NCBI GenBank assembly: GCA_964346905.1
Contig: CAYFXH010000005.1
Location: 1 to 63,556, forward strand
DNA: 63,556 bases
Reading direction: 5' to 3'
Source: an uncultured Desulfobacteraceae bacterium
GTDB lineage: Bacteria > Desulfobacterota > Syntrophobacteria > BM002
Part shown: in pieces, positions 40,080 through 61,671 of the stretch
Layout of the letters: every line of letters starts with the position of its first letter
How positions within the stretch are numbered: position 1 is the first letter of the stretch
The notes under the pieces: generated by a model
What the model was told of the DNA's origin: nothing
What the model saw: only the letters and a program-made list of their open reading frames with translations
Database searches by the model: none
Position numbers and translations under genes: made by a program

Positions 40080-40154
40080 ACGTTCACAGAAAATGATGGG
40101 TTGCACCTGCACCCTATCAGCATGAGCGCAGGGAGGATTCACTATAACAACGGT

Positions 40155-41084
40155 TCACTTGGAATCACTGAGACCCTTGGCGGCATCCTCAAGAGTGACC
40201 GCAGTTTCGGTATATAGTACCTGAGCCTGGCGGTGAATCCACCGGACCGAGCGACCAAGCATCTGGCCCGGACCTATTTCAACCATGGGCCCCAGATTCT
40301 GGCTAATCAACTGCTCCACCACCCCCAGCCAACGTACCTGACTGTGGAGCTGAATTGAGAGCAGCTCTGCCACCTGAGCCGCCTTCTCCAAAAACTGGTA
40401 GTCGATGTAGGAGATGATGGGGGTGTGGGGCTCATTGATAGCGGTCTGGGCAATCCTTTCGGCCAAGCATTGATAGGCACCGTTGAGGAGGCTACAGTGA
40501 TAGGGTGCCGCCGCAGGTAGCCAATCGGTCTTTAGAGCTTGGGAATCGAGCGCTCGTTTCAGAAGCTGGTCCACTGCCGGACGCTCACCGGAGACGATGA
40601 TCTGGTGCCTGGTGTTGACGATGCTCACCTCCACCACACCCTTTACCCGTTCGCACAGTTCCTCAATCTCCGGGAGCGAAAGACCCAGGACAACACCCAT
40701 ACCACCCTGGGTGTTGGCCTGCTGGATACAGCGATCGGCTGCCAACATGAGGGTGAGACCGCTTTCAAAGTTCAGAACTCCGGCGGCATAGGCGGCCGCA
40801 TATATTCCTGAACTGTAGGGCGCCAGGGCGGCAGCCCTGATGCCCCTGGCTGCCAGCAAGTCTGCCACCATACAGCTCACGGTGTAGACTGCCACTTGGG
40901 AGATGAGATCCTCATGGAGCCTCTCTTCAGGTCCGGAGAACATGATGTCCCCCAGGGGTAGACCCAAGTGGGCCTCGGCCCGTTTCAGCATATCCATACT
41001 TTCGCTGAAACGTTCAACTAGATCACGCCCCATGCCCAGGTGTTGGGCGCCTTGGCCTGGAAACAGAAAGCTACAACTACTCAT
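40155..41084 (-). CDS. FabD-like acyl-carrier-protein S-malonyltransferase with a non-canonical nucleophile elbow (PYSSG instead of GHSLG)
   Basis: 309 aa. Begins FLFPGQGAQHLGMG. The elbow region is AALAPYSSGIYAAAYAAGV, and the overall length and layout match FabD. Confidence 0.7.
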   Translation of the reverse strand: MSSCSFLFPGQGAQHLGMGRDLVERFSESMDMLKRAEAHLGLPLGDIMFSGPEERLHEDLISQVAVYTVSCMVADLLAARGIRAAALAPYSSGIYAAAYAAGVLNFESGLTLMLAADRCIQQANTQGGMGVVLGLSLPEIEELCERVKGVVEVSIVNTRHQIIVSGERPAVDQLLKRALDSQALKTDWLPAAAPYHCSLLNGAYQCLAERIAQTAINEPHTPIISYIDYQFLEKAAQVAELLSIQLHSQVRWLGVVEQLISQNLGPMVEIGPGQMLGRSVRWIHRQAQVLYTETAVTLEDAAKGLSDSK

Positions 41085-41794
41085 GGCCGGCCCCTACCCT
41101 GAAACTTCTCCACCTGGAAACCTTCTGGAGGCTCAACCCTAAACAAACCGTCCGGGAGTTTGGTGTTTTCGCGTAGGTTTGATAGGTAAATCACGGTCCA
41201 GTCTTTGTTGGACTCTAAGATAGCGATCTCCTGAGGCAGCCAGGTGCTAGGATCGATCTTCACCTCCAACCGTTTAAAATAACGAGCCCTCCTGCGAGAT
41301 TTTGGTTCCATGGTCATCTGCACCCATATTTCACCACCCGGTCGGGGGAGGGGTGCAACCTGTACCCGGTATTGACGCTGAAACGCTTCTGGATCACCAG
41401 TTGCACCGGTGATCCGCTCCAACAGTCCGCCGCCGAGCGGTTTCCGGTACAGATTTGCCTTCTTCAGGTCAGGATAGAGAACAAGAATCATATCATCCTG
41501 GACCACCAGGGTAAGAGGGGCGGGCCCAACCACCTCCCAGTGCAGTCGAGCCGGTGGTTGCCAATAGAGGTTACCCTCCGACTCTAGGGGCGTTACTAGC
41601 AGCCGCGAGTATTTGAGTTGTTGGAAACGAGCGCTGAGGCTTTTGAGTTCCTGGGCCTTGGTCTGGAGGTGGGCAAGCACCTCGGTCGTGGTGAAGGGAC
41701 CGGCTGCTGTCGCCTGCAGCCAGCTAAAGGAAGCAGTTCCGCCCAGAATGAGGCTGAAACTTAGCACAATGGCCAACCGTGCCGGAGTCTTCAT
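41081..41794 (-). CDS. LolA-like outer-membrane lipoprotein-carrier family protein
   Basis: The ATG at 41794 follows AAGGAG and precedes a signal peptide. Contains LKSLSARFQQLKYSRLLVTPLESEGNLYWQPPARLHWEV. It has a 4 nt overlap with the fabD-like gene. Confidence 0.65.
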   Translation of the reverse strand: MKTPARLAIVLSFSLILGGTASFSWLQATAAGPFTTTEVLAHLQTKAQELKSLSARFQQLKYSRLLVTPLESEGNLYWQPPARLHWEVVGPAPLTLVVQDDMILVLYPDLKKANLYRKPLGGGLLERITGATGDPEAFQRQYRVQVAPLPRPGGEIWVQMTMEPKSRRRARYFKRLEVKIDPSTWLPQEIAILESNKDWTVIYLSNLRENTKLPDGLFRVEPPEGFQVEKFQGRGRP

Positions 41795-41924
41795 CTGCTC
41801 CTTTCCATAATGCTGAACCTCTCCAACCGAGCACGCCGAAACCCGGGACTCTAGGTCCTGAACAACGTCACATTCATACGCCAATCACACGTCTACATCG
41901 CTAACTCTCTTCACGCTAATACGA

Positions 41925-42117: not shown

Positions 42118-43104
42118 CTACCTGCGGTACGATTGGATTTTCTGCTCTTCTATGGGCTCCACTAGGTACCACTGGTCCGGATAGCGGCGGATGTATCGTT
42201 CAAATACCGCCGCCACCTGTTCTAGGTTGTGCTGCAGCGCTTTTCTGCGATCAGGGCCATACCGTAAGTTTAGCGGCTGCTCGATGATGCCTCGGTACTG
42301 TCCCGGAGCCTCCATCACTGAAAAGGCAGGAACAACAGGCGCCTGAGCAGCCATGGCCAGAAGTAGCGGTCCCACCGGCAGGTGCACCTGGCGATGGAAC
42401 AATGTCGTTACTTCTGATCGATCAGAAAAAACCCGATCACCCAATACGGCCACCACCTCATTTCGCTTTAGAGCCTTCATTAGCTCAATGGCGCCGTAGG
42501 CTGACTCCTCCACTTCAATGATCTGGATACCGTGACGCTGGCGCATTACATTTATGAGGCCATCGGTGAATGTGGTGTTGTGCCTGATGGCGGCCACGTT
42601 AACCGGATAGCCCATGGCCCGTAACCCCAAACCCCCAATTTCCCAGTGGCCCAGATGCGCGGTCAGCAAAACCGCGCCTCGCCCCTTCAGCAAGGCCTCG
42701 TCCAGATGGTGACGTCCTTCATAGCAGTGAGCAAAAGCTTGGCTTTCCTCCAGTGTCATGCTGAGCAGGCGGAAGAAATCGACAATGTAGATGCCATAGT
42801 TCTGAAAGAATTTCCAGAGTAACAGCCGTCGACCTGCTGGCGGTTGACAGTCATGGAAGATGACGTCCAGATTGTGTAAGACGTGACGCCGGTCGCGTCG
42901 CGAGAATGCAAAGGCCAGTGCAGCAACGATTCGCGCTAACCCATAGGAGACGGATGCTGGCAGAGACTGAACCGTCTTCAGGGCCTGTCGATACAAGAAC
43001 GGTTTATCCAAAACATGTACACGCATGGTCAACCATAGCCCGCAAGAACTGGCAGCAATGAAGTCAGCAACCCTCTTTTGATGTATAATGCAAGGTGCCG
43101 TCAC
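42118..43104 (-). CDS. LpxL/HtrB-family (lysophospholipid/lipid A) acyltransferase
   Basis: 328 aa. The N-terminal TM region is followed by LLTAHLGHWEIGG (HX4E/D-type motif) and VAVLGDR. Confidence 0.75.
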   Translation of the reverse strand: MTAPCIIHQKRVADFIAASSCGLWLTMRVHVLDKPFLYRQALKTVQSLPASVSYGLARIVAALAFAFSRRDRRHVLHNLDVIFHDCQPPAGRRLLLWKFFQNYGIYIVDFFRLLSMTLEESQAFAHCYEGRHHLDEALLKGRGAVLLTAHLGHWEIGGLGLRAMGYPVNVAAIRHNTTFTDGLINVMRQRHGIQIIEVEESAYGAIELMKALKRNEVVAVLGDRVFSDRSEVTTLFHRQVHLPVGPLLLAMAAQAPVVPAFSVMEAPGQYRGIIEQPLNLRYGPDRRKALQHNLEQVAAVFERYIRRYPDQWYLVEPIEEQKIQSYRR

Positions 43105-43625: not shown

Positions 43626-44936
43626 ATGTCACTCCGTATACTGTTGATTTCCCCCATTGGTCTCAAGAAAGTTCTCGGAGCAGATTTTTTCTTTAAGCTG
43701 CCCTTTTTGGGCTTGCCTACCATCGCTGCGTACACTCCGCCGGGTTGTGAAGTCAAGATGGTGGATGAGCGAATAAGTCCAGTGGATTTCGATGATGATG
43801 CAGATCTGATCGGGATTAGCGTGATGACTCCACTGGCTACCCGGGCCTATGAGATTGCGGATGAGTTCAAGCGACGGGGCAAGACGGTTGTTATGGGTGG
43901 CATGCACGTGTCCGCACTTCCGGATGAAGCCCTGGAGCATTGCGATGCGGTCGCGATTGGCGAAGGGGAACAAGTATGGCCCCAGATGGTGGAGGACTTC
44001 AAAAGAGGGGAACTGAAAAAGATCTACAAGGCCGAAAAGTTGTTTGACTTATCGGCAGCGCAACCGCCCAGATGGGATATCATTGACAAGGGATTGTATA
44101 GTCCGGTGGACTTCATCGAGACCACCCGAGGATGCCCGATCAACTGCAATTTCTGCGCTGTTACCCAGTACTACGGGGCTAAATACCGAACCAAACCCGT
44201 CGGTCTCGTTGAGGAAATGGTGGCACAAGTAAAGCCGGTGGATAAAATCCTCGCTCTCAAGAATCTCATATTCTTCGTTGATGACAACATTATTGCTAAC
44301 CGGAAACACGTCATAGAGCTGTTGAGAATGTTAAAATCTTACAATATCCAGTGGCTAGGGCAGGCCTCCATATCGGTTGCGAAGGATGACGAACTCCTGA
44401 AGCTCATGTCCGAAACCCGGTGTCTCGGGCTCCTGATAGGGATGGAAAGCCTTTCCAATGACACCTTGGCGGAATGTGGCAAACGTATCAATAAACCGGC
44501 TGAATACGAGGAGGCCGTGGCCAGGTTGCACCGTTATGGCATTGGCGTGAAGGCTGCGTTTATGGTTGGCTTCGACAACGATGACATCTCCGTATTTCCT
44601 ACAATGGAAAGATTCATCCGAAGATCCAGCTTTGACAGCGTCTATTTCAGTATTCTCACACCCTATCCGGGCACACGGCTTTATCAGCAGATGGAGAGCG
44701 AGGGCAGGTTGATCCACAAGGATTGGGCAAGGTACGACACTGCTCATGTTGTTTTTCGTCCGAAAAAAATGACCGTGCAACAGCTGGAACAGGGATTTAT
44801 CTGGCTCAATAAGAAGGCCCTTTCGCTCAGATCCATAGTTTTGCGACTTGCTTGGGCGAGAACAGTACCTCAGTTTTTCATTCCTGACAATTTAGCCTTC
44901 AGATCCTGCCTTTTGAAAATGCTGCGAGGGGCATAA
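43626..44936 (+). CDS. B12-binding-domain radical SAM protein
   Basis: 436 aa. The N-terminal Rossmann-like cobalamin domain reads DLIGISVMTPLATRAY...VVMGGMHVS. It is followed by TRGCPINCNFCAV (CX3CX2C). Confidence 0.85.
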   Translation: MSLRILLISPIGLKKVLGADFFFKLPFLGLPTIAAYTPPGCEVKMVDERISPVDFDDDADLIGISVMTPLATRAYEIADEFKRRGKTVVMGGMHVSALPDEALEHCDAVAIGEGEQVWPQMVEDFKRGELKKIYKAEKLFDLSAAQPPRWDIIDKGLYSPVDFIETTRGCPINCNFCAVTQYYGAKYRTKPVGLVEEMVAQVKPVDKILALKNLIFFVDDNIIANRKHVIELLRMLKSYNIQWLGQASISVAKDDELLKLMSETRCLGLLIGMESLSNDTLAECGKRINKPAEYEEAVARLHRYGIGVKAAFMVGFDNDDISVFPTMERFIRRSSFDSVYFSILTPYPGTRLYQQMESEGRLIHKDWARYDTAHVVFRPKKMTVQQLEQGFIWLNKKALSLRSIVLRLAWARTVPQFFIPDNLAFRSCLLKMLRGA

Positions 44937-45178: not shown

Positions 45179-45814
45179 GTGAGCAGCGGTTTTCAGATGC
45201 ATTCAAAGAGAGGTTTTCTCTTGCGCTTGATACGGTTGGTTGCAGCTCTAACGGTTCTAACCTTGTTGGGCTGCGCCACTCCTCCACCTGTTCCCGAGAG
45301 GCTTGCATTTCTGGACTATCAAGGGCACGTCAATGAACACCACATTTTCATCCAGGCGCCTCCTTCCCGTATCTTTGCCGTCCTCACTGACTTTGACCGG
45401 TATGTCACTTTAGTTCCCTCTGACCGTGTCCAGCTGAGCAAGGTGAATCCCGGGCCGTATGAGGTTGGTACCATCATTCGGGCCGAAACGCTTTACAGAA
45501 TCAAGGTTCGGTGGGACTCACAGGTTGTGGCAATACAAAAAGATCGTCTTCTTGTGCTCCAGTTCTTGAGCGGCATCTTTCAGGGGGGCTACGAGGTGTG
45601 GCAACTTATACCTCAAGGAAATTCCACCAGGGTGAGTCATAGCCTTATGTACAATATTTCCAGTTTTCTTTACAGAGTGTTATGGGTGCTCAAGCGGGGA
45701 GAGCACAAGCACAACACGTTGACGGAAGCAACCATTCAGAATCTGAAACGTGCATGCGAGACCGAGCTGCCTCATCCTCAAGGGGAAGCGAGCCAGGAGG
45801 GAGAGCGGTTGTGA
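45179..45814 (+). CDS. SRPBCC (START/polyketide-cyclase-like) lipid-binding-fold lipoprotein
   Basis: 211 aa. The lipobox is LTLLGC. Contains HIFIQAPPSRIFAVLTDFDRY. The start is uncertain, either GTG 45179 or ATG 45197. Confidence 0.65.
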   Translation: MSSGFQMHSKRGFLLRLIRLVAALTVLTLLGCATPPPVPERLAFLDYQGHVNEHHIFIQAPPSRIFAVLTDFDRYVTLVPSDRVQLSKVNPGPYEVGTIIRAETLYRIKVRWDSQVVAIQKDRLLVLQFLSGIFQGGYEVWQLIPQGNSTRVSHSLMYNISSFLYRVLWVLKRGEHKHNTLTEATIQNLKRACETELPHPQGEASQEGERL

Positions 45815-46638
45815 ACTCCTGTATTCTCTGCCAGACGCGCCAGTTTCGACCCTTCACTCGCGAGGGCGAATGGCAGTACCTTCGCTGTCTTACCTGCGGT
45901 CTCATTTTTCTCGAGCAGCAACCCTCAAGCAGTTTTTTGCAGGATCATTATCAGGATTATCTCCCTGGTGATCCCCAAGGGATAGAGAGTTGGCGCCAAC
46001 TGATGGCCCAGGTATTTGCCAAGAGCGCCAGTCTCATTCAGGAAGAAATCACCGTGCCGGGACGGTTACTGGACGTCGGCTGCGGTTATGGTTTTTTTTT
46101 GAAAGAGATGGCTCGCCGGGGCTGGCAGGTGGAGGGAATTGAAATCTCAGCTACGGGCTTAGGCTACGCCCGAGACAATTTGGGACTTCAGGTCTCAGAC
46201 AAACCCCTGCCGCGACCCGAGTGGCAAGATAATTGCTACGACGTTATCACGTTATTTTATGTGATAGAGCACCTGCAGGATCCGAAGGGTGTGCTCAGGG
46301 AAGCTTATCGGCTTCTTCGCTCCGGTGGGTTGCTGCTCCTAAGATGGCCACACACCGCTCCCATCGTGAGGATGTTAAAACCCTGGGCGGACCGGCTGAA
46401 ACTCTATCAGGCCCCCTCTCATTTGTTTGACTTTTCGCCAATGACTCTATATAAAATTTTACATCAGTCGGGTTTTCATGAGATCCGGACAACTGTCTGT
46501 GGTTGGACCAGGCCAGCCGGAAAACGAGCGCGTCTAGCGGCGTGGTTCTTTGGCAGTTTAGGCGAGAAGCTGGCACGGATAAGCCGTAATCGTATGTTGT
46601 TGCCGGGTGTGAGCAAAACCACTTTGGCCCGGCGATGA
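45811..46638 (+). CDS. Class I SAM-dependent methyltransferase with an N-terminal Cys4 zinc-ribbon
   Basis: The GTG at 45811 overlaps the upstream TGA (GTGA). Contains CILCQ...CLTCG and then LLDVGCGYGFFLKEM and a YRLLRSGGLLLL motif. Confidence 0.8.
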   Translation: MNSCILCQTRQFRPFTREGEWQYLRCLTCGLIFLEQQPSSSFLQDHYQDYLPGDPQGIESWRQLMAQVFAKSASLIQEEITVPGRLLDVGCGYGFFLKEMARRGWQVEGIEISATGLGYARDNLGLQVSDKPLPRPEWQDNCYDVITLFYVIEHLQDPKGVLREAYRLLRSGGLLLLRWPHTAPIVRMLKPWADRLKLYQAPSHLFDFSPMTLYKILHQSGFHEIRTTVCGWTRPAGKRARLAAWFFGSLGEKLARISRNRMLLPGVSKTTLARR

Positions 46639-46669
46639 ACCTTTCAATACACATCATATGAGGTAAGTC

Positions 46670-47047
46670 ATGTCCAGAATGCCCCTGATGACGGTGCTCG
46701 GTCTCGTTTCTTTTCTGATACTTTCTGGGTGTACTGCTAAGCAAGGTGTCGTTCGGCTCAACACCGAACCGCGTGGGGCGAAATACTTTGTGGATGGGAT
46801 TGAGAAAGGGACAACCCCGGCAGAATTTGAATGGGACGTCTCGCGTCCCATTTTGCTTGAGATCAGGAAAGAAGGCTACCATTCTGAACAGGAACTGCTC
46901 AATAAAGGTTGGCTCCAGTTCCAAATCAGTCAAGGGAACTATGGTGAGATTCGGATCGGCAAAGTTACTTACAAATGGACGGTAACCATTAATCGGAAGT
47001 TGAAATCCGCACCTCCGGGAGTTGCTTCCGGTATTGGAGGGCAGTAA
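46670..47047 (+). CDS. PEGA-domain lipoprotein
   Basis: 125 aa with a GAGGT RBS. The lipobox is ILSGC. Contains VRLNTEPRGAKYFVDGIEKGTTPAEF. Confidence 0.7.
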   Translation: MSRMPLMTVLGLVSFLILSGCTAKQGVVRLNTEPRGAKYFVDGIEKGTTPAEFEWDVSRPILLEIRKEGYHSEQELLNKGWLQFQISQGNYGEIRIGKVTYKWTVTINRKLKSAPPGVASGIGGQ

Positions 47048-47062
47048 AGTGGTCCAACCCTC

Positions 47063-49378
47063 ATGGAGCACTCGAGGACTGGAGGCCTGGATTCCGGAAT
47101 AGACGCGATCGCGAAAAGAGATATGGAGCGACAGCAGGTGGCGACCTACTTTTCAGCTAATTCCCAAACTGGATACCATGGTACAGGACATGCAGGTTCA
47201 CGGTTTCACTCTGCAGTTAATGCGCCGGTAGTGGGCATTCCGCGTGGTCTTCTCTATTTCAGATACCAACCCTTATGGGCCACGTTTTTCTTTGATTTGG
47301 GGGTCGAGGTACGGGTGTCTCAACCCACCGAACGGTCTCGCTTCGAGACCGCTCAAAGCCTTACCCGCAGCGATCTCTGCCTGCCTGTCAAGGTTTTCTT
47401 GGACCACGTGGCCAGATTAAAAGACCAGGTGGACTATATCCTGCTACCTCGGGTGATCAGTGTCAGCCCCGACGCGTATATGTGTCCCAAGATCCTGGGG
47501 TTGACCGACATGGCTCGGAATGTGTTCTCCGATTTACCCACCCTGTTGACGCCCAGGATTAATGCCAAACTTCCCAAGCCCGAGGGATTTGCAGAAGCGT
47601 GTTTGGAGGTGGGACGGTACTTCAGCCGCAGCAGTTCACAGATACATAAAGCGTGGAAGGCTGCCCAGGGAGCTCAGGCCGAGTTCGAACAGCGGCTGCT
47701 GCGCTACCCCTTGGACGAGTCCCTGAGACCATGGGATGCGACTTTTAGTCAACGACACAGTGAACCTGGAACCGAACAGCGGTACCGGGTAGCAGTCATC
47801 GGCCGCCCTTACATCGCCTTTGATAGCGCTCTCAGTCACGATCTCCTCAATCTACTTAAGCGGGACAGCGTACAGGTCGTCACCCCAGAATCCCTGCCTT
47901 TCGAGGTGAAGGAAAAGGAGAGTCAGAGGCTGTCGAAGCAGGTGTACTGGCAGTTGGGTAAAGAACTGGTAGCAGCGGCCATGCACTACATGAAATGTCC
48001 TGATGTGGATGGCATCGTTAATGTCTCCAGTTTTGGCTGTGGGCAGGATTCGTTCACCAACGCGCTGGTGGAGTATTACGTCACCAAACACTCAGAGAAA
48101 GCATATCTCAATCTGGTCCTGGATGAGCACACAGCCGACGCCGGGTTGAATACCCGAGTGGAGGCGTTCCTGGACATGGTGGACCAGAGGAAAAAAAACG
48201 GAGTTTCAGGGTCAAGAGAGCTTAAGGAGGATGCAGAGCCACTTAGATCCAAGAAGCTTGTAAAGCAACCCAAACCCCATGACATGCACCTGACCATTCC
48301 CCATATGGGTCATCTCCACCTGGGCTTCGAGCAGGTGTTCAAGAATCTCGGCGTGCACATAACCATGCCGCCCCGCCCCAACAAAGAAGCTTTGCTGTTG
48401 GGTACGCGCTATTCCCCTGAGTGTGCCTGCCTGCCGTTTAAATTCAATCTGGGCAACATGATCCAGGCGATGAATCAAGGCGCCACCGACATCATGATGC
48501 CCGGCGGCTTCGGTCCCTGCCGTTTTGGTTACTACAGCGTGATCCAGGAACAGATCCTGCGGGATCTCGGCTACGAGTTCAGAATGGGTCGTGCAGATGA
48601 CCCGGACAGTCTCCGTGACATGCTCGATATGGTCAAGAGAATCGCGGGACTGAATACTAAGTGGGACTCCTACAAGGTCTTTTTCTTTATTCTCCATCGT
48701 CTCGCCCTGGTGGACTGGTCCCTACGGCGGGCCCACTGGTTGCGGCCCAGAGAAATTGACAGACGTTCCACTGACCGGGCTCTTCGTCGTTGCCTGAAGA
48801 TAATTGACCAGACAAGTAGATTCCGCGACTTGTGGCGAGCAAAGCAGGAGGTGCGTCGGGTATTGGCCTCGGTTGCTTACGACCGCAGCCGCCCCGTTCT
48901 CCGGGTAGGCATTGTCGGCGAGATATTCATGGTGCTGGAAAATTACGCCAACATGAATGTGGAAGAACGGCTGGGGGAGATGGGAGTTGAGGTCCATCGT
49001 GGCGTTTGGCTGAGTGACTGGCTCAATGACCGCTATCGTTTTAAACTCTTCAGGCGGAATCAATTCAAGTGGTCCCTCAGTCAGGCAGCACCATACTTGT
49101 GCGAACCCAGTGGGGGTGAAAGCGTGAAATCCATAGGCAAATCTGTCTGCTTTGCCAAAAAGGGATTTGACGGAATCGTCCATCTGATGCCCTTCACGTG
49201 CATGCCGGAGCTGGTGGCCCAGACGATTCTGACCAAAGTGTCAAGCGATTATAATATCCCGGTGCTTACCCTAATCTTCGATGAGCATACTTCGCCTGGT
49301 GGGGTGCAAACCCGGCTGGAGGCCTTTGTAGATCTGATACACCGTAAAAGAGGTTTAAAGGGAAAAAATGGCGATTAA
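47063..49378 (+). CDS. 2-hydroxyacyl-CoA dehydratase / benzoyl-CoA reductase-superfamily protein (DUF2229-type N-half + HgdB/D-component-like C-half)
   Basis: 771 aa. VGIPRGLLYFRYQPLWATFFFDLGVEVRVSQPT...DLCLPVKVFLDHV is typical of the CoA-enzyme-activase-associated domain. The second half has RVGIVGEIFMVLENYANMNVEERLGEMGVEV and MPFTCMPE. Confidence 0.7.
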   Translation: MEHSRTGGLDSGIDAIAKRDMERQQVATYFSANSQTGYHGTGHAGSRFHSAVNAPVVGIPRGLLYFRYQPLWATFFFDLGVEVRVSQPTERSRFETAQSLTRSDLCLPVKVFLDHVARLKDQVDYILLPRVISVSPDAYMCPKILGLTDMARNVFSDLPTLLTPRINAKLPKPEGFAEACLEVGRYFSRSSSQIHKAWKAAQGAQAEFEQRLLRYPLDESLRPWDATFSQRHSEPGTEQRYRVAVIGRPYIAFDSALSHDLLNLLKRDSVQVVTPESLPFEVKEKESQRLSKQVYWQLGKELVAAAMHYMKCPDVDGIVNVSSFGCGQDSFTNALVEYYVTKHSEKAYLNLVLDEHTADAGLNTRVEAFLDMVDQRKKNGVSGSRELKEDAEPLRSKKLVKQPKPHDMHLTIPHMGHLHLGFEQVFKNLGVHITMPPRPNKEALLLGTRYSPECACLPFKFNLGNMIQAMNQGATDIMMPGGFGPCRFGYYSVIQEQILRDLGYEFRMGRADDPDSLRDMLDMVKRIAGLNTKWDSYKVFFFILHRLALVDWSLRRAHWLRPREIDRRSTDRALRRCLKIIDQTSRFRDLWRAKQEVRRVLASVAYDRSRPVLRVGIVGEIFMVLENYANMNVEERLGEMGVEVHRGVWLSDWLNDRYRFKLFRRNQFKWSLSQAAPYLCEPSGGESVKSIGKSVCFAKKGFDGIVHLMPFTCMPELVAQTILTKVSSDYNIPVLTLIFDEHTSPGGVQTRLEAFVDLIHRKRGLKGKNGD

Positions 49379-49895
49379 CTCTTGCTTGGAAAATCCTCCC
49401 ATGACACGGTTCGCCACTTTGCTCGCCTTCATTTTCTGTCTCACTTCATTGAATTCTGTCTTGGCTGATAACGAAATTACTCATGAGGACAAATGCCGGG
49501 TGTGGAAAACGTACGTAGACCGCAGGGTAGCACGGTACCGCGAAGAAATAGAGGTGATGAGTACAAAACAGGCCTCCCTAGAGGAGAGGCTCGCCCGCCC
49601 CGAGTCCTTGAAAAACGAGAGGGAGAGGTCGATGTATCAGGAAAAAGCGGCGTCGGCTCAGGAAAAGATCCGTTTAAACCAACTAAAAATCGACCGATTC
49701 CAGCAGCGAAGAAATTGTGCATATGCTGCCGGACTTTCCCCAATCAAATACCGCTACTGCAAGTGGGTGCTTGAGGCCTCCAGGCAGGGAAAATCCACTG
49801 GTGCTAAACTCATGGCCTTCGTGAGCGAGATGGGTAACGCCACCAAGGAGGAACTCTACCAGCTGCGAGAGTGGTTGCATGATCTGGGCGAGTAA
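49368..49895 (+). CDS. Secreted coiled-coil hypothetical protein
   Basis: 175 aa with a signal-like segment TRFATLLAFIFCLTSLNSVLA. It overlaps the upstream stop. I recognise no family. Confidence 0.45.
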   Translation: MAINSCLENPPMTRFATLLAFIFCLTSLNSVLADNEITHEDKCRVWKTYVDRRVARYREEIEVMSTKQASLEERLARPESLKNERERSMYQEKAASAQEKIRLNQLKIDRFQQRRNCAYAAGLSPIKYRYCKWVLEASRQGKSTGAKLMAFVSEMGNATKEELYQLREWLHDLGE

Positions 49896-49962
49896 CGCCC
49901 TGGATTCAGCATATACTGAGGCTATAGGAACTGCTTTTTCCCCAGGCCGGAGGCCAGCCACT

Positions 49963-50937
49963 CTAGAGGTCACCGGTTTCCCATTTACCGCAACGATCCC
50001 CCCACCGTACCAAGCGCTCCTGGCCTGCGGCCACCGGTACTCTGACCTCCATGACCTCGCAGCCGTTGGAGCAACCCTCACATTCAAAACCGTTGAGCTC
50101 GTAAGGTATCTCTCCAACCTCAAAACCGAGGAAGCGAGTTTGTTTGCTTGAGTCCACCACTTCCTTGGCCAAGAGCGCGGCACCAATGGCTCCCATTACC
50201 TCAAAATCAGGGGGAACAACCAATCCTTTTCCCAGAACTCGCTCAAACGCAGTTCGCATGCCCACATTTGCAGCTACACCACCCTGAAACAGAATAGGTT
50301 GGCGTAGCTCCTGGCTCTTGACCAGATTGTTCATATAATTGCGCACGAGGGCCTCACATAGACCGGCGATGATATCTTCCACACTGTGGCCCATCTGCTG
50401 TTTGTGGATCATGTCCGACTCTGCAAACACGGTGCAACGACTGGCAATTTTTACCGGTTTTCTGGCTCTGAGGGCGTATTCACCAAAGGATTCAATGGGG
50501 ATTCCCAAGCGGTACGCCTGTTGGTCAAGAAAGGAACCGGTACCGGCGGCACACACCGTGTTCATGGCAAAGTCGATTACGGTGCTGTTGCGCAAGATAA
50601 TACTCTTGGAATCCTGTCCGCCAATTTCGATGATTGACTGGATGTCTGGTTCATAATGGAGGGCTGCCACAGCGTGGGTGGTGATCTCGTTCTTGATCAC
50701 ATCGGCACCTATGAGAATGCCGGCCAGGTAACGTCCACTGCCAGTGGTGCCTGCACCGGCTATGGTCAACTCTCCGTCCATTTTCTGAGCCATTTCCAGG
50801 AGACCATTTTGCATCGCCTTCATGGGTTGGCCGTGGGTGCGCAAGTACTGCTTGTGAAGCACTCGACCAGCATCATCCATGAGCACCAGGTTGGTGCTGA
50901 TGGAACCAACATCGATTCCGAGGTAAGCGGCTTTCAT
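49963..50937 (-). CDS. BadF/BadG/BcrA/BcrD-type ATPase (HgdC-like activase) with a Cys-rich C-terminal tail
   Basis: The ATG at 50937 follows AAAGGA. Contains MKAAYLGIDVGSISTNLVLMD, EIGGQDSK and CAAGTGSFLD. The tail is FECEGCSNGCEV...CGKW. Confidence 0.8.
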   Translation of the reverse strand: MKAAYLGIDVGSISTNLVLMDDAGRVLHKQYLRTHGQPMKAMQNGLLEMAQKMDGELTIAGAGTTGSGRYLAGILIGADVIKNEITTHAVAALHYEPDIQSIIEIGGQDSKSIILRNSTVIDFAMNTVCAAGTGSFLDQQAYRLGIPIESFGEYALRARKPVKIASRCTVFAESDMIHKQQMGHSVEDIIAGLCEALVRNYMNNLVKSQELRQPILFQGGVAANVGMRTAFERVLGKGLVVPPDFEVMGAIGAALLAKEVVDSSKQTRFLGFEVGEIPYELNGFECEGCSNGCEVMEVRVPVAAGQERLVRWGDRCGKWETGDL

Positions 50938-51072
50938 GGACACATCCTTTTGCAATGTCAGTTGTCCGTGGTTCGTAGTCAGTTGCATGGAAGTGTGAAA
51001 AGTCAATCCATTGAGATCATACCTTAAATGGGCACATTTGGCGACGATTCTCTTGTGGAAAATGGAGCTTTA

Positions 51073-51206: not shown

Positions 51207-53792
51207 TCATCCTAATCTCCCCGTCTCCCTTTGCCCGTGTCCCCGTGGCAATCTTTGCTCACACCATGACAGCACTGCCGGCAGCAGAATGAGAGCGGCA
51301 AGAAGGCAGCTGAGGATGCCCAGGCCGGTAACCCAGCCGATGCTGCGCAGACCGGGATAATGGGAGCTCACCAAGGAACCGAACCCTATGGTGGTGGTCA
51401 AGGAGGTAAGTACAATGGCGCGACCTATTTGCCTGAGAACCACCGTTAGGCTCTGTGTCGACTCCTCTCGCCAGTGGTGGACAATGTGAATGCCATCATC
51501 AATCCCGATCCCCACGATCAGAGGCAATACAATGAAGTTGGCGTAATTAAATGGCAGTGACGCCAAGGCCATAACCCCCAACATGGCAATGATTCCGGCA
51601 ACCAGGGGAATGATAGCGAGAGCTGCAGTCAAAGGGTGTCGCAGAGCCAAAAGCAGTGCCACCGTGATAGCCACACCGGCCAGAACGAGGGAGTCGCCCA
51701 AATCTTGCCAGACCAGGCCTTTGAGATGATCTGTCAAAACCGGCCATCCGGCCAGCCGCCACTGGCTCTGACTCAGGCCACTTTCGGCCACGGCCCTTTG
51801 AAGATCCAGGGTTAAACGCTTCAGATCGCTCTTACGCCACAACCCTTCCCGGGGATAGATAAAGGTGAACAGCTTTTTGTTTTGCCCGTGACCCACCAGA
51901 AAAAGATCCAGCAAGCCCTGGAGATTGGCTTGCTGGAACGTTCCTGAATCAACCTCTCCGCTGGGCTGCACCAGTGTTCTCAACCAGCGCAGATATGCGT
52001 CGTACTCAGGGAGAAAGTGGAAACCGTTCTCCTGAAGGGCCTGTTTGAAGGAGGCTTCGATACGATCAGGATTGAGCTCCGCACCGTGGCGATGGAAGAA
52101 CTCCAGTGCCTTCCGCTGGCCCTCCGGTGCCGGCCAGTAGGAAAGAATGCTGCGATAGTGCGACAATCTCCCCGCACTCTGCAGTCGGTTCAAAGCCTTC
52201 TCAATACGCCAGGCGCGATTCAGCAGTACCGCATCGCTATCACCCTCCAAGACCAGGAGCAGATATCCGCTGGCGCCACCCAGGATGGACTCAAGTTGTT
52301 TCTCCACGGCCATGTGGTCTGCTTGTTGGGGCCGCAAAGCCCGGAGCTCTTCTTCAAAGGAGACGTCAAAGGCTGACACCCCAAGGATTGTCAACAAGAC
52401 CAGGCTGGTTGCCACAACTAGGCGTGGACGGGCTACCACGGAGCTGATCAGGGACTCGAGACCAAAGTTGGGAATAGGTCGGGCCGAGCCCAGGATTCCA
52501 CCACGGTTCTGCTGGTAAACAAGGAGAGCAGGAAGCACCACCAGCATGGCGGTGAGGCAGGCAATCATGCCCACACCGGTAATGATACCCAGTTCTTGAA
52601 ATCCCCTGAAAGAAGATGCTCCCAGAGCAAAAAAGGCTGCCGCAGTAGTCAGTCCTCCCATGAGAATTGCACGACCGCTTTTCGTCAATGCCAGGTGCAG
52701 CGCGGTTGGCTGGTTCTGACTCTGAGAGGCCTCCACATATAGGTTGAGCAAGTGTATGGCGAAGTCAATACCGAGTCCCAAGAGAACGGCGGCGAAGGCA
52801 CCGGTGAGGATGTTGACGTGGCCGAAAATAAGCTGCAAAGCCCCGAAGGTCCAGATAAGGGCCATGCCCAGTGGTAGGAGCATGAGAAAAAGGATGCGCA
52901 GCTGTCGAAAGACGAGATAAAAGAGAAGGGTAACACCGAGGAACGAGATGATGAAGCTGCTTTGCAAATCTCTACGGGTAAGAGCCTCGTCCTCCAGGGC
53001 AATGGGATATCCGCCGGCGAAAGAGACAGTGGGAGCGATAGGGTCGCCGGGGTGAGATTGCTGCCAGTTGCGAACGGCGTTTTCGGCTGCCGCCGAAACA
53101 GCAGCCATGAGACGTTTGGTGTATTCGATGTTTCGCGCCGATTGCTCGGGCCGTATGAATATCAGAAGATGACGGCGGCTCTTATCCACCAGGTAGCCAT
53201 CCTCCAGATCAAGGCCGGCAAAAGAACGCTGGGCAAACCAGCGGGAAAGCCAGAGGTGGCGCAGTCCCAGAGGGTCTCTTACGATGAGTTCCCTGACTCC
53301 ACCCTGCATTGGCATCAACAGGAGACGTTTGTTTTCTCGCACCTGATTGTGAATGGAAGCATCACTCAGCCGGTGGAGCAGATCAAGCCTTTCCTTTTCG
53401 GAGAGAAACAAGGCAGCATGAGGCATAAGAACCTCAGTGAAGAAGCGTTTCTGTTGGCTGCTAACCCTGGCCTCCAGATACCCTATGTGCGGGAAAGATG
53501 TTATTTCTTCAACAAATGCATCGACTACTTGCTTGCCGCTTTCCAGGTCTCCAGGTTCAGGGAGACTGACCAGCACGACAAGCACGTCCTGAGGGCCCGC
53601 TTCCTGCAGATCGGCCAATAGTTTTCTGGCCTGGCTGTCTCTGGACGGCATGAGAGAGTCGAGGCTGGAGTCCATTCGGAGCTGGGTGATGAGTACAATG
53701 GACAGTCCGGTGAGAAGGGCAGCGCTCAGCAGAATCAGCCGATGGCCTCGGACAATGCGGTCAGCAAGAGCTGCAAAGAGAGTCTGGGCCAT
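51207..53792 (-). CDS. MMPL/RND-superfamily (sterol-sensing-domain-type) lipid exporter
   Basis: 861 aa. It has two blocks of about 6 TM helices, each preceded by a large soluble loop. Sample motifs are GIDFAIHLLNLY and GIGIDDGIHIVHHW. Confidence 0.8.
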   Translation of the reverse strand: MAQTLFAALADRIVRGHRLILLSAALLTGLSIVLITQLRMDSSLDSLMPSRDSQARKLLADLQEAGPQDVLVVLVSLPEPGDLESGKQVVDAFVEEITSFPHIGYLEARVSSQQKRFFTEVLMPHAALFLSEKERLDLLHRLSDASIHNQVRENKRLLLMPMQGGVRELIVRDPLGLRHLWLSRWFAQRSFAGLDLEDGYLVDKSRRHLLIFIRPEQSARNIEYTKRLMAAVSAAAENAVRNWQQSHPGDPIAPTVSFAGGYPIALEDEALTRRDLQSSFIISFLGVTLLFYLVFRQLRILFLMLLPLGMALIWTFGALQLIFGHVNILTGAFAAVLLGLGIDFAIHLLNLYVEASQSQNQPTALHLALTKSGRAILMGGLTTAAAFFALGASSFRGFQELGIITGVGMIACLTAMLVVLPALLVYQQNRGGILGSARPIPNFGLESLISSVVARPRLVVATSLVLLTILGVSAFDVSFEEELRALRPQQADHMAVEKQLESILGGASGYLLLVLEGDSDAVLLNRAWRIEKALNRLQSAGRLSHYRSILSYWPAPEGQRKALEFFHRHGAELNPDRIEASFKQALQENGFHFLPEYDAYLRWLRTLVQPSGEVDSGTFQQANLQGLLDLFLVGHGQNKKLFTFIYPREGLWRKSDLKRLTLDLQRAVAESGLSQSQWRLAGWPVLTDHLKGLVWQDLGDSLVLAGVAITVALLLALRHPLTAALAIIPLVAGIIAMLGVMALASLPFNYANFIVLPLIVGIGIDDGIHIVHHWREESTQSLTVVLRQIGRAIVLTSLTTTIGFGSLVSSHYPGLRSIGWVTGLGILSCLLAALILLPAVLSWCEQRLPRGHGQRETGRLG

Positions 53793-54128: not shown

Positions 54129-55796
54129 TTAACGGGAAAACTTCTGCACCCGTGAGTTGGCCGTGTCGGCCACGTACACATTTCCGGCTCCATCCGCACT
54201 GAGTCCATACGGCTTGATGAACTGCCCGGAGCTCGTGCCTGGTCCACCGTAGGATCTGAGACTCTGTCCGGTTGGACTCATTTCCCAGATCAAGGCGGTG
54301 GCAGCATCCAGTACCAACAGGTTCCCCGAGGTCCGGTCCAAGGCTACATCAGCAGGATATTTCAGTCGGTCGGTGAAGGCGGCAAGAAACCGACCTTGGA
54401 AGTCGAACTTTTGCACCCTCCGCATCTTGCTGTCTGCAACGTAGACATTACCGTTTTCATCCACTGTCAGCCCCATGGGTTCGACAAAATCGCCGCTGCC
54501 CTTGCCTTTGCGGCCCCAGGCGCGTAAGAATCTCCCCTGATTGTCGAACACCTGGACCCGGTTCAGTTTGGCATCCACCGTGTAAATGGACCCCTCCGGT
54601 CCCACTGCAATCCCGCTCAAAAAAGCAAAATCGCCGTTTCCGTTGCCTTTCCGGCCCCACTGGCCGAGATAAACGCCGTTGGCATCAAATTTTTCTACCC
54701 GAAAATTGTAGGTGTCGGCAACGTACACATTGCCTTCACCGTCCACGGCCACATCGTAGGGGCGAGCCAAACTACCAGAACCAGTCCCCTCCTGTCCCCA
54801 GCTCTTTAAGAAGGTACCGCCGGTATCAAATACTTGGATCCGGTTGTTGTACGTGTCCGCCACATAAATGTTGCCAAAACCATCTGCCGCTAGCCCAAAT
54901 GGTTTGAGAAAATCTCCGGAGCCTGTACCTGGCACGCCCCAGGCTTGAGCAAAACGGAGGGTGGTGCTCGGGCCCACCGAAGATGGAAGACCGAGCAAGG
55001 GCCTATCCACCCTGGCAGCTGCAGCTCCCATGGAAATCACATTTTGGCCCACCGATACGGTCTCATTGGTTTTCTGCTCAACCACCCTGGTAAAGGCTAG
55101 CTTCTCCTGAGCCTCGGTGACCTGAAGCTTACCCGTGTGGATTTTTTCGACTCCCAGAATCTCCCCTGAGACCGGGTGCTTGATGATCTCGCCTTCCCGG
55201 TAGACTTCAAATTGCATACCTGGTTTTGCCCCAGCAGACTTTCCCAGATCAATGATGAAAGTCTCTTCTTTCTGGTGGATGATGAATCCCCGCAGGGGAA
55301 ACTTGCTCACCAATTGGGCCACAAAAGGGTTTATCTTTCGGGACATGGCGCCAACGCTGGTGGCTGCCAAGCGATCGGCCACTTTAATGGTAGCACTTTC
55401 CGTCTCAATAATTTTCACGTTCAAATCAAGACCTTGTCGGTGACTGATAACCGCGCCAGTGGCTATGTAGGTGGCTCCCAGGACCCGCCCCAATTGGGCC
55501 GCAGTATCGACATCGATAACCCCGGTTATGCCCAATTGTTGCTCTTCCATGACCTTTTGCAACGCTTGGCGTTCGATAACATCAAAACGGCCTTGTTTTA
55601 CGAAAGCGGTAGTGAGCCACTGGGCTGCAATCTTACCCAGATCCTGAGACTTGGCTTTCTCTCCTTGCGCTTCCAGATCCACCACGGCGATCCTGGTACG
55701 AGTCGTAGCATGCACGTGTGTCTGGGAGGTAACCCAGAAAAAGAGGGCAACGGTCAAAATCACGCAGCTTACACCCACCCGCTGGTTTGGCTTCAT
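54129..55796 (-). CDS. Secreted CsgG/LpoB-like N-domain fused to a six-bladed NHL-repeat beta-propeller
   Basis: 555 aa with a signal peptide. Contains RIAVVDLEAQG...GRFDVIERQALQKVMEEQQLG...GATYIATGAV, then six repeats of the type G.F..P.G.A.D..GN.YVADT.N.R.Q.F. Confidence 0.75.
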   Translation of the reverse strand: MKPNQRVGVSCVILTVALFFWVTSQTHVHATTRTRIAVVDLEAQGEKAKSQDLGKIAAQWLTTAFVKQGRFDVIERQALQKVMEEQQLGITGVIDVDTAAQLGRVLGATYIATGAVISHRQGLDLNVKIIETESATIKVADRLAATSVGAMSRKINPFVAQLVSKFPLRGFIIHQKEETFIIDLGKSAGAKPGMQFEVYREGEIIKHPVSGEILGVEKIHTGKLQVTEAQEKLAFTRVVEQKTNETVSVGQNVISMGAAAARVDRPLLGLPSSVGPSTTLRFAQAWGVPGTGSGDFLKPFGLAADGFGNIYVADTYNNRIQVFDTGGTFLKSWGQEGTGSGSLARPYDVAVDGEGNVYVADTYNFRVEKFDANGVYLGQWGRKGNGNGDFAFLSGIAVGPEGSIYTVDAKLNRVQVFDNQGRFLRAWGRKGKGSGDFVEPMGLTVDENGNVYVADSKMRRVQKFDFQGRFLAAFTDRLKYPADVALDRTSGNLLVLDAATALIWEMSPTGQSLRSYGGPGTSSGQFIKPYGLSADGAGNVYVADTANSRVQKFSR

Positions 55797-57175
55797 TTCT
55801 GGTCTCCTTGCAACCGCCTGGACTGGGAATACGCCTGCCAGGCCGGATCGGCGAACGACTTGTACGAGTCAGCAAACTCATCCATGGAATCAGCCAGTTG
55901 GGTGAAGATCAAATCCGCCCCCTCATGGGTGAAGTAGGCCCCGTGGTTCAGCGCCATCTCACGGCCCACCTCAGGGTGATCCACAAGCATGCAGGGGCGA
56001 TACAAGTTGTCGTCGTATGGTATCTTTGCTTTTATTGCCTGAAACAAGGGAGAGTTGAGGGCTTCTTTCAATGAGGTGTTATGGATGTTGTGGGTGGCAA
56101 AGTGGCAAAACACACAGGGCTCCACATCACCCTTGGCATTGATGTGCGCATACTTGCGAGCGCCGGACATGCAGCCATTCACCACCGGACCATCATTCCA
56201 AAAATCTATGAACAGCATTGCCTTGCTATTGCGCCAGCGGCCCAGGCACGCCCTCAGATAATCTCTTTGAGCGGGAGTAGGCATGAGTTCGGTTTTAGGA
56301 TCCCTTCCCACCGGGACATACATGAAGTAGCAGCCGAGAAGGCACCCTTTTTCACTCATGAAATCTATGAATTCGTCGCTGGTGATGATGTCGTGATTCT
56401 CTTTGGTTTGCGTGGCGGAGTAGCCAAAGAGCACCCCCCCATCACGAAGCATGTCCATGGCCTGCATAACCCGGTCGAAGTGACCTTTTCCTCGCCTCTG
56501 ATCTGTGTATTCCCTGTAGCCCTCAATGCTGATAGAGGGTAGGACATTGCCCACCGAGACGATCTTTTCCACTATTTTTTCGTCAACAAGGCCCCCGTGG
56601 GTATACACCAGGAAGGACATATCATTGTGCTTCCGGAAAATATCAAAAATGTCCTTCCGGAAGAAAGGCTCACCCCCAGAAATGGTGATGAAATAGATGC
56701 CCATTTCCTTGGCCTCATCGAGGATCCGGTCTATGGTCTCAAAACTCAATTCGTCATTCTGCGTGTAGCTGCCCGCATAGCAGCCAAAACAGTTGAGGTT
56801 GCAGCGCATGGTGGGGCTGATTACCAGGAATCCCGGGGGGTAGTAGCCTCCGGGATCTTGAGCGAAGGCTTTACGTTTGTTGGTGCCTACCAGGAGTTGG
56901 TTGATAACGTAGCTTTGGATGATGGTCTTGCGGTGGTGGGGGTTGAGAGACCGAAGTATTTTCTTGGTAATTTCCAGGCTGGGATGTCCCTGGTCAAAAA
57001 GATCTCGAATCCACCGAATCCGGTGAACATAGTAGTCCCTCTTCGCGAGCTTTTCGGCAAGCTTGGCCACCGTCAGGTAGATGAGCTTGAACAGTTTGTC
57101 GTTGCTTACATGGGCCAGGGAAGCCATCAACAGATTAATGGCGTGAACTTCCAACCGATGGTTATTGGTCTTCAA
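55793..57175 (-). CDS. Radical SAM enzyme with a long helical N-extension and a C-terminal auxiliary-cluster-like Cys motif
   Basis: 460 aa. Contains ISPTMRCNLNCFGCYAGSY (CX3CX2C) and ITISGGEPF. The C-terminal region has GCMSGARKYAHINAKGDVEPCVFC...YRPCM. It has a 4 nt overlap with the NHL gene. Confidence 0.85.
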   Translation of the reverse strand: MKTNNHRLEVHAINLLMASLAHVSNDKLFKLIYLTVAKLAEKLAKRDYYVHRIRWIRDLFDQGHPSLEITKKILRSLNPHHRKTIIQSYVINQLLVGTNKRKAFAQDPGGYYPPGFLVISPTMRCNLNCFGCYAGSYTQNDELSFETIDRILDEAKEMGIYFITISGGEPFFRKDIFDIFRKHNDMSFLVYTHGGLVDEKIVEKIVSVGNVLPSISIEGYREYTDQRRGKGHFDRVMQAMDMLRDGGVLFGYSATQTKENHDIITSDEFIDFMSEKGCLLGCYFMYVPVGRDPKTELMPTPAQRDYLRACLGRWRNSKAMLFIDFWNDGPVVNGCMSGARKYAHINAKGDVEPCVFCHFATHNIHNTSLKEALNSPLFQAIKAKIPYDDNLYRPCMLVDHPEVGREMALNHGAYFTHEGADLIFTQLADSMDEFADSYKSFADPAWQAYSQSRRLQGDQK

Positions 57176-57243
57176 TGTTCTCCTCCAAAGCTCAGGAGTT
57201 TACTCAATTTTAAAGCCACGTCCTTTGCGCTTGGTTTCTCTAC

Positions 57244-57744: not shown

Positions 57745-57839
57745 TTCAACACCAAGGGTCCAGCCTCCAGTGAAGAGGTCGGAAGTCTTAATTATTTAGC
57801 GTAACTGTAGGTATTTTTCAATTACTTTTTGCCTCGTGT

Positions 57840-61668: not shown

Positions 61669-61671
61669 CAT

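Follow-up and report, generated by a model that had tools for sequence, protein, structure and literature searches.

An unfused PlsA/Ger-type reductase and its single-domain activase in a recurring ladderane-type lipid cluster of anaerobic bacteria: a candidate ether-forming system

The 63,556-nt stretch analysed here (hereafter, the window) is contig CAYFXH010000005.1, positions 1 to 63,556, of an uncultured Desulfobacteraceae bacterium (GCA_964346905.1). It carries one copy each of a 771-aa reductase component (Red; 47063..49378, + strand) and a single-domain HgdC-type ATPase (activase, Act; 49963..50937, − strand). Judged from its sequence, Red belongs, in unfused form, to the PlsA/Ger (DUF2229) branch of the ATP-dependent benzoyl-CoA reductase/2-hydroxyacyl-CoA dehydratase (BCR/HAD) superfamily of radical enzymes. 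By gene content and synteny, Red/Act is embedded in one recurring ‘ladderane-type’ or aryl-polyene-like lipid cluster in Desulfobacterota, Nitrospirota and NC10. The most likely function of the pair, to which we give about an even chance, is the reduction of an ester to an ether in the lipid made by this gene island (acyl-glycerolipid ester to alk-1-enyl or alkyl ether). Three features appear to be newly seen: a tailed single-domain activase as constant partner, the full range of fusion states and, most notably, the conserved, monophyletic recruitment into a lipid cluster in three anaerobic phyla.

A first, sequence-only reading of the window had described a 771-aa protein with a DUF2229 part and an HgdB/D-like part, and profile searches bore this out. 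PF09989 (DUF2229) matched residues 57-277 of Red at E 8.6e-53, scoring 179.6 bits where the cut-off is 29.4, and a further stretch of the protein matched more weakly. PF06050 (HGD-D) matched at E 4.4e-10, once per half and at the C-terminal ends, each match covering ~60 residues (profile positions 282-341 of 342). The strings VGIPRGLLYFRYQPLWATFFFDLG and CLPVKV were located at residues 57-110. When Red was cut at residue 395 and its halves were compared by BLASTP, they matched each other at E 2e-9, and the motifs CLP[VF]K and DGIV..F.C...DEHT..G..TR.EAF.D were common to both. Given this half-against-half match and the shared motifs, Red is an internal duplication, a tandem of two homologous modules, named Red1 and Red2 here after the usage for PlsA (PMC12838417). 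Red1 spans 47228..48190 (+; residues ~56-376) and Red2 spans 48284..49372 (+; residues ~408-770). Each module contains three conserved cysteines, namely C106, C141 and C326 in Red1 and C456, C486 (GPCRFG) and C713 (PFTCMPE) in Red2. Five of these (C141, C326, C456, C486 and C713) were among the invariant residues in an alignment of 40 relatives, in which C106 was conserved at >90%, and all six were kept in every one of 88 aligned split and fused relatives. Three cysteines per module are typical of the [4Fe-4S] sites in the BCR/HAD superfamily (HadBC, HgdAB), and the two sets are, by analogy, candidate ligands of one such cluster per module. Also invariant across split and fused forms were D354-x-H356 and T364-R365-x-E367-A-F-x-D371 of Red1. 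An AlphaFold2 model built from the 40-relative alignment had a pLDDT of 85.8 and a pTM of 0.86, with disorder predicted for residues 1-49 and for the inter-module linker (382-403). Because the first ~50 residues are unconserved and predicted to be disordered, and because homologues are mostly 710-750 aa long, the true start may be M21 or lie further downstream of 47063.

The same reading had placed an HgdC/BcrA-type ATPase with a Cys-rich tail on the opposite strand, converging on Red, and this description also stood. The activase matched TIGR00241 (acyl-CoA dehydratase activase) at E 3.4e-60 (203.6 bits against a cut-off of 125.4) and PF01869 (BcrAD_BadFG) at E 1.2e-47. Its sequence matches in the PDB, ranging from 1e-32 to 1e-40, comprised MbdQ (the best, 1.4e-40), HgdC (1.8e-36) and HadI. 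The open reading frame (ORF) is extendable to a TTG at 51006 (49963..51006, −); the ATG at 50937 (MKAAYLGIDVGS) is the likely start, giving 324 aa as in homologues. Numbered from this ATG, C129 and C168 were invariant in 65 of 65 relatives and are candidate ligands of a dimer-bridging [4Fe-4S] cluster, two cysteines per monomer as in HgdC-type activases. The tail (49990..50082, −) has the pattern C286-x2-C289-x3-C293 ... C316 (FECEGCSNGCEV...GDRCGKW), and its four cysteines (CEGCSNGC...CGKW) were kept in 64 of 65 related split activases. The activase chains matched in the PDB have 243-276 residues and are too short for such a tail. The same Cys motif occurs directly after the second activase domain (Act2) and before Red1 in the fused proteins P0102, P0103 and P0105 (FECQSCSNRCE...GSRCGQW in P0103), and the window activase thus corresponds to Act2 plus linker. 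Both Red and the activase are genuine genes, as hundreds of homologues at 30-84% identity show.

Red and the activase converge across a 585-bp gap, in which a 175-aa ORF (49368..49895, +) had no Pfam or NCBIfam match. This ORF has a signal-peptide-like N-terminus and a charged, coiled-coil-like body. No counterpart was found by tblastn in 87 related loci. Among the eight nearest relatives whose locus holds both genes (78-84% identity), six have a gap of 1-34 bp and two have one of 235-271 bp; on these grounds the ORF is probably a lineage-specific insertion outside the system.

Assignment to the PlsA/Ger superfamily, also proposed beforehand, was supported by the DUF2229 match and by alignment with fused proteins. 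Residues 57-756 of Red aligned to residues 680-1403 of P0253, a 1419-aa Act-Act-DUF2229-HGD-D protein, with 29% identity (E 8e-70), and about a dozen further fused-type proteins could also be aligned. The only long-range sequence relatives of Red were proteins of 1000-1500 aa carrying PF01869 and PF09989, and a sequence search of Red against all PDB chains gave no match at E<=1. The matches listed for P0253, the closest fused-type protein, as a database query included 120 uncharacterised ~1400-aa proteins, mostly from Nitrospinota; neither these nor the matches of Red contained a named protein of characterised function. NCBIfam holds no PlsA/Ger-specific model, and the fused-type proteins match its activase models only. 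The features that Red and its activase share with this branch are DUF2229, two tandem reductase modules with HGD-D-like ends and conserved cysteines, and the segment C-x2-C-x3-C...C after the activase domain, the last being a criterion derived in this analysis from the fused-type proteins.

Two groups of characterised enzymes serve as reference points; the activity that defines their family is the anoxic conversion of sn-1 (or sn-2) acyl esters in glycerolipids into alkenyl or alkyl ethers. Glycerol ester reductase (Ger) is represented by Tmari_0479 (AGL49404) of Thermotoga maritima and SHJ90043 of Desulfatibacillum alkenivorans (Sahonero-Canavesi et al. 2022), each of which gave 1-O-alkyl glycerols in anaerobic Escherichia coli (PMC13159169). 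The Ger authors used DUF2229 to define the reduction domain and wrote the two enzymes as BBDHDDH and BBDHDHDH, respectively, where B is PF01869, D is PF09989 and H is PF06050 (PMC13159169). In this code, the window Red is equivalent to D-H-D-H, and its activase to a single B domain with the Cys linker. Ger and the window system both have HGD-D-like segments after DUF2229, work with an HgdC-type activase, come from anaerobic hosts and have a lipid context. They differ in that Ger is a single ~1400-aa chain with two activase domains, whereas the window has one activase on a separate, convergent gene; in addition, there is no report of Ger inside a biosynthetic cluster. PlsA, also derived from the BCR/HAD superfamily, has the module order Act1-Act2-Red1-Red2 (PMC12838417). 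It is a single gene in Enterococcus faecalis (Q835P9) and is divided over the plsA-plsR operon in Clostridium perfringens (PMC8788747; Q8XL48/Q8XL47), PlsA there being Act1-Act2-Red1 and PlsR being Red2. The reductase of C. perfringens is thus also split over genes, although at another point: the division is Act / Red1-Red2 in the window and Red1 / Red2 / Act in sister clades, and the window system has one activase domain instead of two. The expectation that Ger and PlsA are usually fused to two activases agrees with these published architectures (PMC13159169; PMC12838417). According to a later paper by the Ger authors, Ger and PlsA cannot be told apart from primary structure (PMC13274423).

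A scan of one genome per species identified at least 181 relatives of the activase-less Red. Identity to the window Red was 56-84% in metagenome-assembled genomes (MAGs) of Syntrophobacteria and other Desulfobacterota, 48-57% in Nitrospirota (Thermodesulfovibrionia), 49% in one NC10 MAG, 46% in Desulfovirgula thermocuniculi and 31-37% in Firmicutes (Geosporobacter, Desulforudis, Desulfothermobacter, Ammonifex), Chloroflexota and Actinomycetota. A HMMER search with Red over 1.84 billion cluster representatives returned 3640 matches at E<=1e-3, including 853 at E<=1e-30, and the best 150 of the 3640 were mostly separate Red1 (~330 aa) or Red2 (~360 aa) proteins. Red was fused in 46 of the loci retrieved, and Red1 and Red2 were adjacent genes in 35. 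In nearly every locus looked at, Red was adjacent to one single-domain activase. Essentially all loci of Nitrospirota, Firmicutes and Chloroflexi have this gene downstream of Red on the same strand, at a distance of a few to ~280 bp. Convergent activases were confined to the Desulfobacterota clade with fused Red (gaps of 1-2589 bp). The split layout with a single ATPase, which the sequence-only reading had called unusual, therefore turned out to be the norm in the activase-less family; only the convergent orientation deserves that description, being restricted to one clade.

The fusion states found were Red1|Red2|Act, Red1Red2|Act, Act|ActRed1Red2 and ActActRed1Red2. The third was seen at locus L090 (113-4221), in which a separate gene for a 262-aa Act1 precedes one for a 1088-aa Act2-Red1-Red2 protein; a B12-binding radical S-adenosylmethionine (SAM) gene, a family 2 glycosyltransferase (GT2) and plsY (glycerol-3-phosphate acyltransferase) lie within 6 kb. 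At another locus (L080, 7878-13223), the order is Red2-like, activase, Red1, Red2 and Red1-like, with an ATP-grasp gene upstream, and the additional copies around the module suggest a local duplication.

In a neighbour-joining tree, a rough method with midpoint rooting in which the fused PlsA/Ger-type proteins formed the outgroup, the cluster-embedded forms of Red (Desulfobacterota, Nitrospirota, NC10 and the locus L049) formed one clade, apart from the stand-alone forms of Firmicutes and Chloroflexi. The genes recurring around the clade encode a ketosynthase and chain-length factor (KS/CLF), a ketoreductase (KR), a dehydratase (DH), an acyl carrier protein (ACP), B12-binding radical SAM enzymes, LpxL/PlsC-type acyltransferases, LolA and MMPL. 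The Nitrospirota operon reads Red1, Red2, Act, LolA, KS, CLF, B12-binding radical SAM enzyme, DUF2062 and two further B12-binding radical SAM enzymes. NC10 and L049 have three B12-binding radical SAM genes, (a deacetylase), KS, CLF, a phytoene-desaturase-like amine oxidase, Red1, Red2, FabD, KR and an ApeP-type DH. A second Desulfobacterota clade (L034) has a PlsC-type and an LpxL-type acyltransferase, a B12-binding radical SAM enzyme, Red1 and Red2. The family also forms stand-alone operons, free of fatty acid synthase or polyketide synthase (FAS/PKS) genes, in Firmicutes, Chloroflexi and Actinomycetota. The genes around the Firmicutes Red/Act operon are unrelated ones; in Desulforudis, plsX-fabH lies 8 kb away.

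‘Ladderane-type’ type II FAS clusters, first described in Kuenenia (kuste33xx) and Desulfotalea (DP185x) (Rattray 2009), contain FabF paralogues, radical SAM enzymes and phytoene-desaturase-like proteins (PMC2649909; PMC13459092), and genome mining has found such clusters, with unknown product, in many non-anammox phyla (PMC9902471). The clusters described here resemble them in the FabF-like KS/CLF, the B12-binding radical SAM enzymes, ACP, KR and DH and, in NC10 and L049, also in the phytoene-desaturase-like oxidase. A reductase or activase of the BCR/HAD type is not described for these clusters in Rattray 2009 (PMC2649909) or in a 2026 review of radical SAM enzymes in lipid synthesis (PMC13459092), and no report of an association of Red/Act with a ladderane-type lipid cluster was found in the papers searched. 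The ApeP-like dehydratase (a label taken from Pfam), LolA, MMPL, GT2, thioesterase and LpxL-type acyltransferase of the window island recall aryl-polyene clusters, of which such export and acylation genes are typical.

The right half of the window (35412-63556) is, by Pfam annotation and synteny, one conserved island for lipid synthesis and export, and the same island was found in many MAG contigs at 60-88% protein identity. Red is the final gene of a co-directional run on the + strand, which begins with a B12-binding radical SAM enzyme (43626..44936; PF02310, PF04055), the most constant companion of Red in the cluster-embedded loci of Desulfobacterota, Nitrospirota, NC10 and L049. The run continues directly upstream of Red with genes annotated by Pfam as an SRPBCC protein, a SAM methyltransferase and a PEGA lipoprotein (45179..47047, +), and the order methyltransferase-(PEGA)-Red was kept in L001 and L007-L018. 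Divergent from this run, on the − strand, are an LpxL/PIM-type lipid acyltransferase (42118..43104; PF03279, 3.3e-34), which co-occurs with Red in Desulfobacterota and NC10 loci, a FabD-like acyltransferase and a LolA-like carrier (40155..41884; PF00698, PF03548), both kept in the island, and PD40/peptidase-MA, Omp85-family and phosphodiesterase proteins (35412..40142; Pfam). The last group, 68-79% identical and syntenic in L010 and L015-L017, is probably the envelope/export end of the island.

Beyond the activase, on its strand, lies an MMPL/HpnN-like RND lipid exporter (51207..53792, −; PF03176 at 3e-32, TIGR03480 at 9e-82 but below its cut-off), and the Act-MMPL order is conserved in relatives. 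It is followed by genes for a CsgG/NHL protein, a radical SAM/SPASM enzyme, a small export protein and an ATP-grasp enzyme (54129..59126, −; Pfam), 75-86% identical and syntenic in L009, L015, L016, L018 and L019. The 460-aa radical SAM/SPASM enzyme (55793-57175, −) always adjoins the ATP-grasp gene in the island, and its best matches are generic SPASM maturases; it was considered as a tetraether synthase (Tes/GDGT-MAS, 7tol) and rejected, the match (E 3e-5) covering the radical SAM core only. At the right end are type II FAS/PKS genes for KR, ACP, thioesterase, ApeP-like dehydratase, GT2 and KS (59434..63556, +; the KS is cut by the window end), labelled by blastx against Pfam-labelled proteins of L001 and L047 and, for the thioesterase and GT2, by Pfam. 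The proposal that lipid genes flank Red/Act on both sides, with no genes for benzoate or amino-acid fermentation among the window neighbours, was therefore confirmed by annotation of the neighbours and by synteny across phyla.

In the left part of the window, outside the island, the stretches 2080-10208 and 16913-19138 contain genes of ordinary beta-oxidation (thiolase, acyl-CoA dehydrogenase, TetR and enoyl-CoA hydratase), as well as phosphoglycerate dehydrogenase, FabH and an old-yellow-enzyme-type reductase. A NuoF-like FMN/[4Fe-4S] protein (695 aa) adjoins a [2Fe-2S]/[4Fe-4S] ferredoxin-like protein at 27667-30654 (−), ~17 kb from the activase. The two are a possible low-potential electron-handling unit, although any association with Red/activase is speculative.

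If Red/Act is indeed an ester-to-ether reductase, the following mechanism could be envisaged. The 324-aa activase would form a homodimer holding one [4Fe-4S] cluster between two C129/C168 pairs, and so stand in for the pseudo-dimer that Act1 and Act2 make in the fused enzymes. Once it has taken up an electron from ferredoxin or flavodoxin and bound ATP, it would dock on Red, probably via its four-Cys tail, a putative docking or metal-binding element that in the fused enzymes forms the covalent link to Red1. Hydrolysis of ATP would then power the transfer of an electron of very low potential to the three-Cys [4Fe-4S] sites in Red1 and Red2. If PlsA/PlsR and Ger are a guide, the substrate would be the ester carbonyl of an acyl-glycerolipid, here a special lipid built by the island. 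The ester would be converted via a ketyl radical and dehydration to an alk-1-enyl ether, and possibly be reduced further to an alkyl ether, and the ether lipid would be exported by the LolA/MMPL machinery. In this scheme, we infer the cluster types, dimerisation, electron path, substrate and ether product.

Five considerations favour the ester-to-ether function. DUF2229 and the Cys tail are peculiar to the PlsA/Ger branch, and the catalytic-looking residues of Red1 (D354, H356, T364, R365, E367 and D371) are invariant in split and fused forms alike. Glycerolipid-type acyltransferases are among the operon partners. The existence of stand-alone operons, like plsA-plsR of C. perfringens, fits a generally available substrate, such as a membrane lipid. 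Finally, relatives in the host lineage are known ether-lipid producers: Desulforhabdus amnigenus contains alkyl glycerol ethers, and Desulfatibacillum contains such ethers with 10-methyl branches (PMC5552659).

Several observations weigh against this function. The tie to Ger and PlsA is drawn from architecture and motifs, not from measured similarity to a proven enzyme. Identity of Red to any fused-type protein is 22-33%, and the closest of these proteins, at 29-33%, would be borderline under the thresholds used to call homology to T. maritima Ger (E<=1e-50 at >=30% coverage, or E<=1e-30 at >30% identity). Red carries no PF01869, and hence lacks the two N-terminally fused domains of this family; the BBD arrangement (two activase domains and DUF2229), conserved in all confirmed alkyl-ether producers (PMC13159169), is absent from the window system. 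Red2 retains a second DEHT motif (residues 740-743; window 49280-49291), which is also frequent in the activase-less family (D in 57/76, E in 58/76, H in 50/76 and T in 57/76 sequences) and is lost, mostly to G/S, in the 12 fused Act-Act-Red proteins compared. This difference hints at a functional one, and the motif may mark a diagnostic, perhaps functional, divergence of the split and fused branches. Eight cluster-embedded Red1/Red2 loci (L029, L031, L034-L036, L039, L049 and L056) have no activase within 10 kb, and no enoyl reductase was seen among the island genes in the window by Pfam and blastx annotation. A 2026 study notes that all screened Bacillota hold additional PlsA homologues without activation domain, the role of which is termed ‘unclear’ (PMC13274423). 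The Firmicutes relatives from Geosporobacter, Desulforudis, Desulfovirgula and Ammonifex, likewise without PF01869, fit this group; the passages of that study consulted here mention neither an adjacent single-domain activase nor a biosynthetic-cluster context, both of which occur in the loci described here.

The strongest competing explanation, which we consider clearly less probable though still a serious candidate, is that Red/Act tailors a thioester-bound (acyl-ACP or acyl-CoA) intermediate of the island's own chain pathway by ketyl-radical chemistry. This could be a Birch-like, ATP-driven reduction of a conjugated polyenoyl thioester, as in BCR, or else the removal of water from an unactivated hydroxyacyl intermediate, the kind of reaction that 2-hydroxyacyl-CoA dehydratases carry out. 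The fold is shared with HadBC, BzdNO and MbdON, all of which use thioester carbonyls, and the operons of the cluster-embedded clade also encode KS/CLF, KR, DH, ACP and a phytoene-desaturase-like oxidase. As no enoyl reductase was seen in the island, reducing the chain as it grows would be another task that makes chemical sense, and clusters of the Kuenenia/Desulfotalea type have been linked to polyunsaturated products (PMC2649909). The DEHT motif of Red2, the loci lacking a nearby activase and the missing BBD point in the same direction. The thioester explanation is countered by DUF2229 and the activase tail, which link the family to PlsA/Ger-type proteins and not to HAD/BCR, and by the lack of sequence-level similarity of Red to any CoA-ester enzyme in the PDB. 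Moreover, the operons of Firmicutes, Chloroflexi and Actinomycetota contain no FAS/PKS genes, and the partners in the L034 operon are two acyltransferases, not chain-building enzymes.

It is improbable that Red/Act is a general low-potential reductase resembling the double-cubane cluster protein (DCCP), or acts on some other unrelated substrate, with its location in the island being incidental. Foldseek searches with the Red model retrieved DCCP (7yyl, 6eno), 2-hydroxyisocaproyl-CoA dehydratase (3o3m) and the catalytic subunits of benzoyl-CoA reductase (8s02, 9g87) with similar scores and 11-14% identity, each corresponding to one half of Red, and Red1 gave one half-sized match to HadBC, DCCP and BzdNO chains. 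The best E-value belonged to the complexes of DCCP with its reductase (DCCP:DCCP-R; 7yyl, 6eno). DCCP also uses a separately encoded single-domain activase, which the window activase matched at 1.7e-26 (7yyl_E). However, the match of Red to the double-cubane model NF040772 reached 24.1 bits against a cut-off of 350 and covered 63 residues only. In the homodimeric DCCP, six cysteines of one ~420-aa subunit hold an [8Fe-9S] cluster, whereas in Red the cysteines are divided three and three over two diverged halves. An incidental location is also hard to argue, because the lipid-cluster synteny recurs in three phyla and is monophyletic.

The enzymes of fermentation and aromatic degradation share some general features with Red/Act. 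HgdCAB and HadIBC combine a homodimeric ATPase activator with two homologous [4Fe-4S] subunits, a three-gene layout also found in the sister clades of Red, and class I BCRs (BcrABCD, BzdNOPQ, MbdONPQ) perform ATP-coupled low-potential electron transfer. By contrast, HAD enzymes have neither DUF2229 nor the Cys tail, and class I BCRs have two different ATPase subunits and aromatic-pathway neighbours; the window holds a single ATPase gene, with no CoA-transferase or fermentation genes among the neighbours of Red/Act. Red reached no NCBIfam BCR or HAD equivalog, and the activase scored 73-104 bits against BCR equivalog models with cut-offs of 313-578. The best homologues of Red are thus not characterised dehydratases or BCR subunits, the finding that the sequence-only reading had named as fatal to its proposal; these enzymes match at the level of fold only. 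A classical 2-hydroxyacyl-CoA dehydratase or class I BCR is accordingly very unlikely, even though some homologues are named ‘2-hydroxyacyl-CoA dehydratase’ or ‘CoA activase’ in databases, Red matches PF06050 and the activase resembles BCR and HAD activases: PF06050 covers only the end of each half, rather than a whole subunit, the adjacent genes include none for a CoA-transferase, dienoyl-CoA hydratase, second ATPase subunit or ferredoxin, and 37 kb separate the system from the beta-oxidation genes at 2-10 kb.

Red/Act is therefore a concrete candidate, open to direct testing, for the enzyme that makes the ether bond of a specialised envelope lipid in uncultured anaerobes. Non-isoprenoid ether lipids and branched tetraethers are widely used as environmental and palaeoclimate biomarkers, and their anaerobic producers and pathways are partly known. 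Surveys have counted ‘Ger homologues’ by similarity alone. The present results point to a large, separately evolving activase-less branch, nearly always accompanied by its own single-domain activase and probably functional, one clade of which was recruited into a lipid biosynthesis and export cluster common to three anaerobic phyla. The natural variants in fusion state could be useful for dissecting which modules are needed in the ether-forming reaction. If the proposed function is true, it would tie the orphan ‘ladderane-type’ cluster class to a chemical product. More tentatively, and with only a small likelihood, Red/Act and its constant B12-binding radical SAM and acyltransferase partners might constitute the ether-forming step of a dedicated pathway by which anaerobic Desulfobacterota, Nitrospirota and NC10 make and export methyl-branched, ether-linked envelope lipids or, alternatively, Red/Act might be an ATP-driven polyenoyl-thioester reductase. 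The latter would explain how chains are completed in ladderane-type clusters without an enoyl reductase. [quoted passage not shown]

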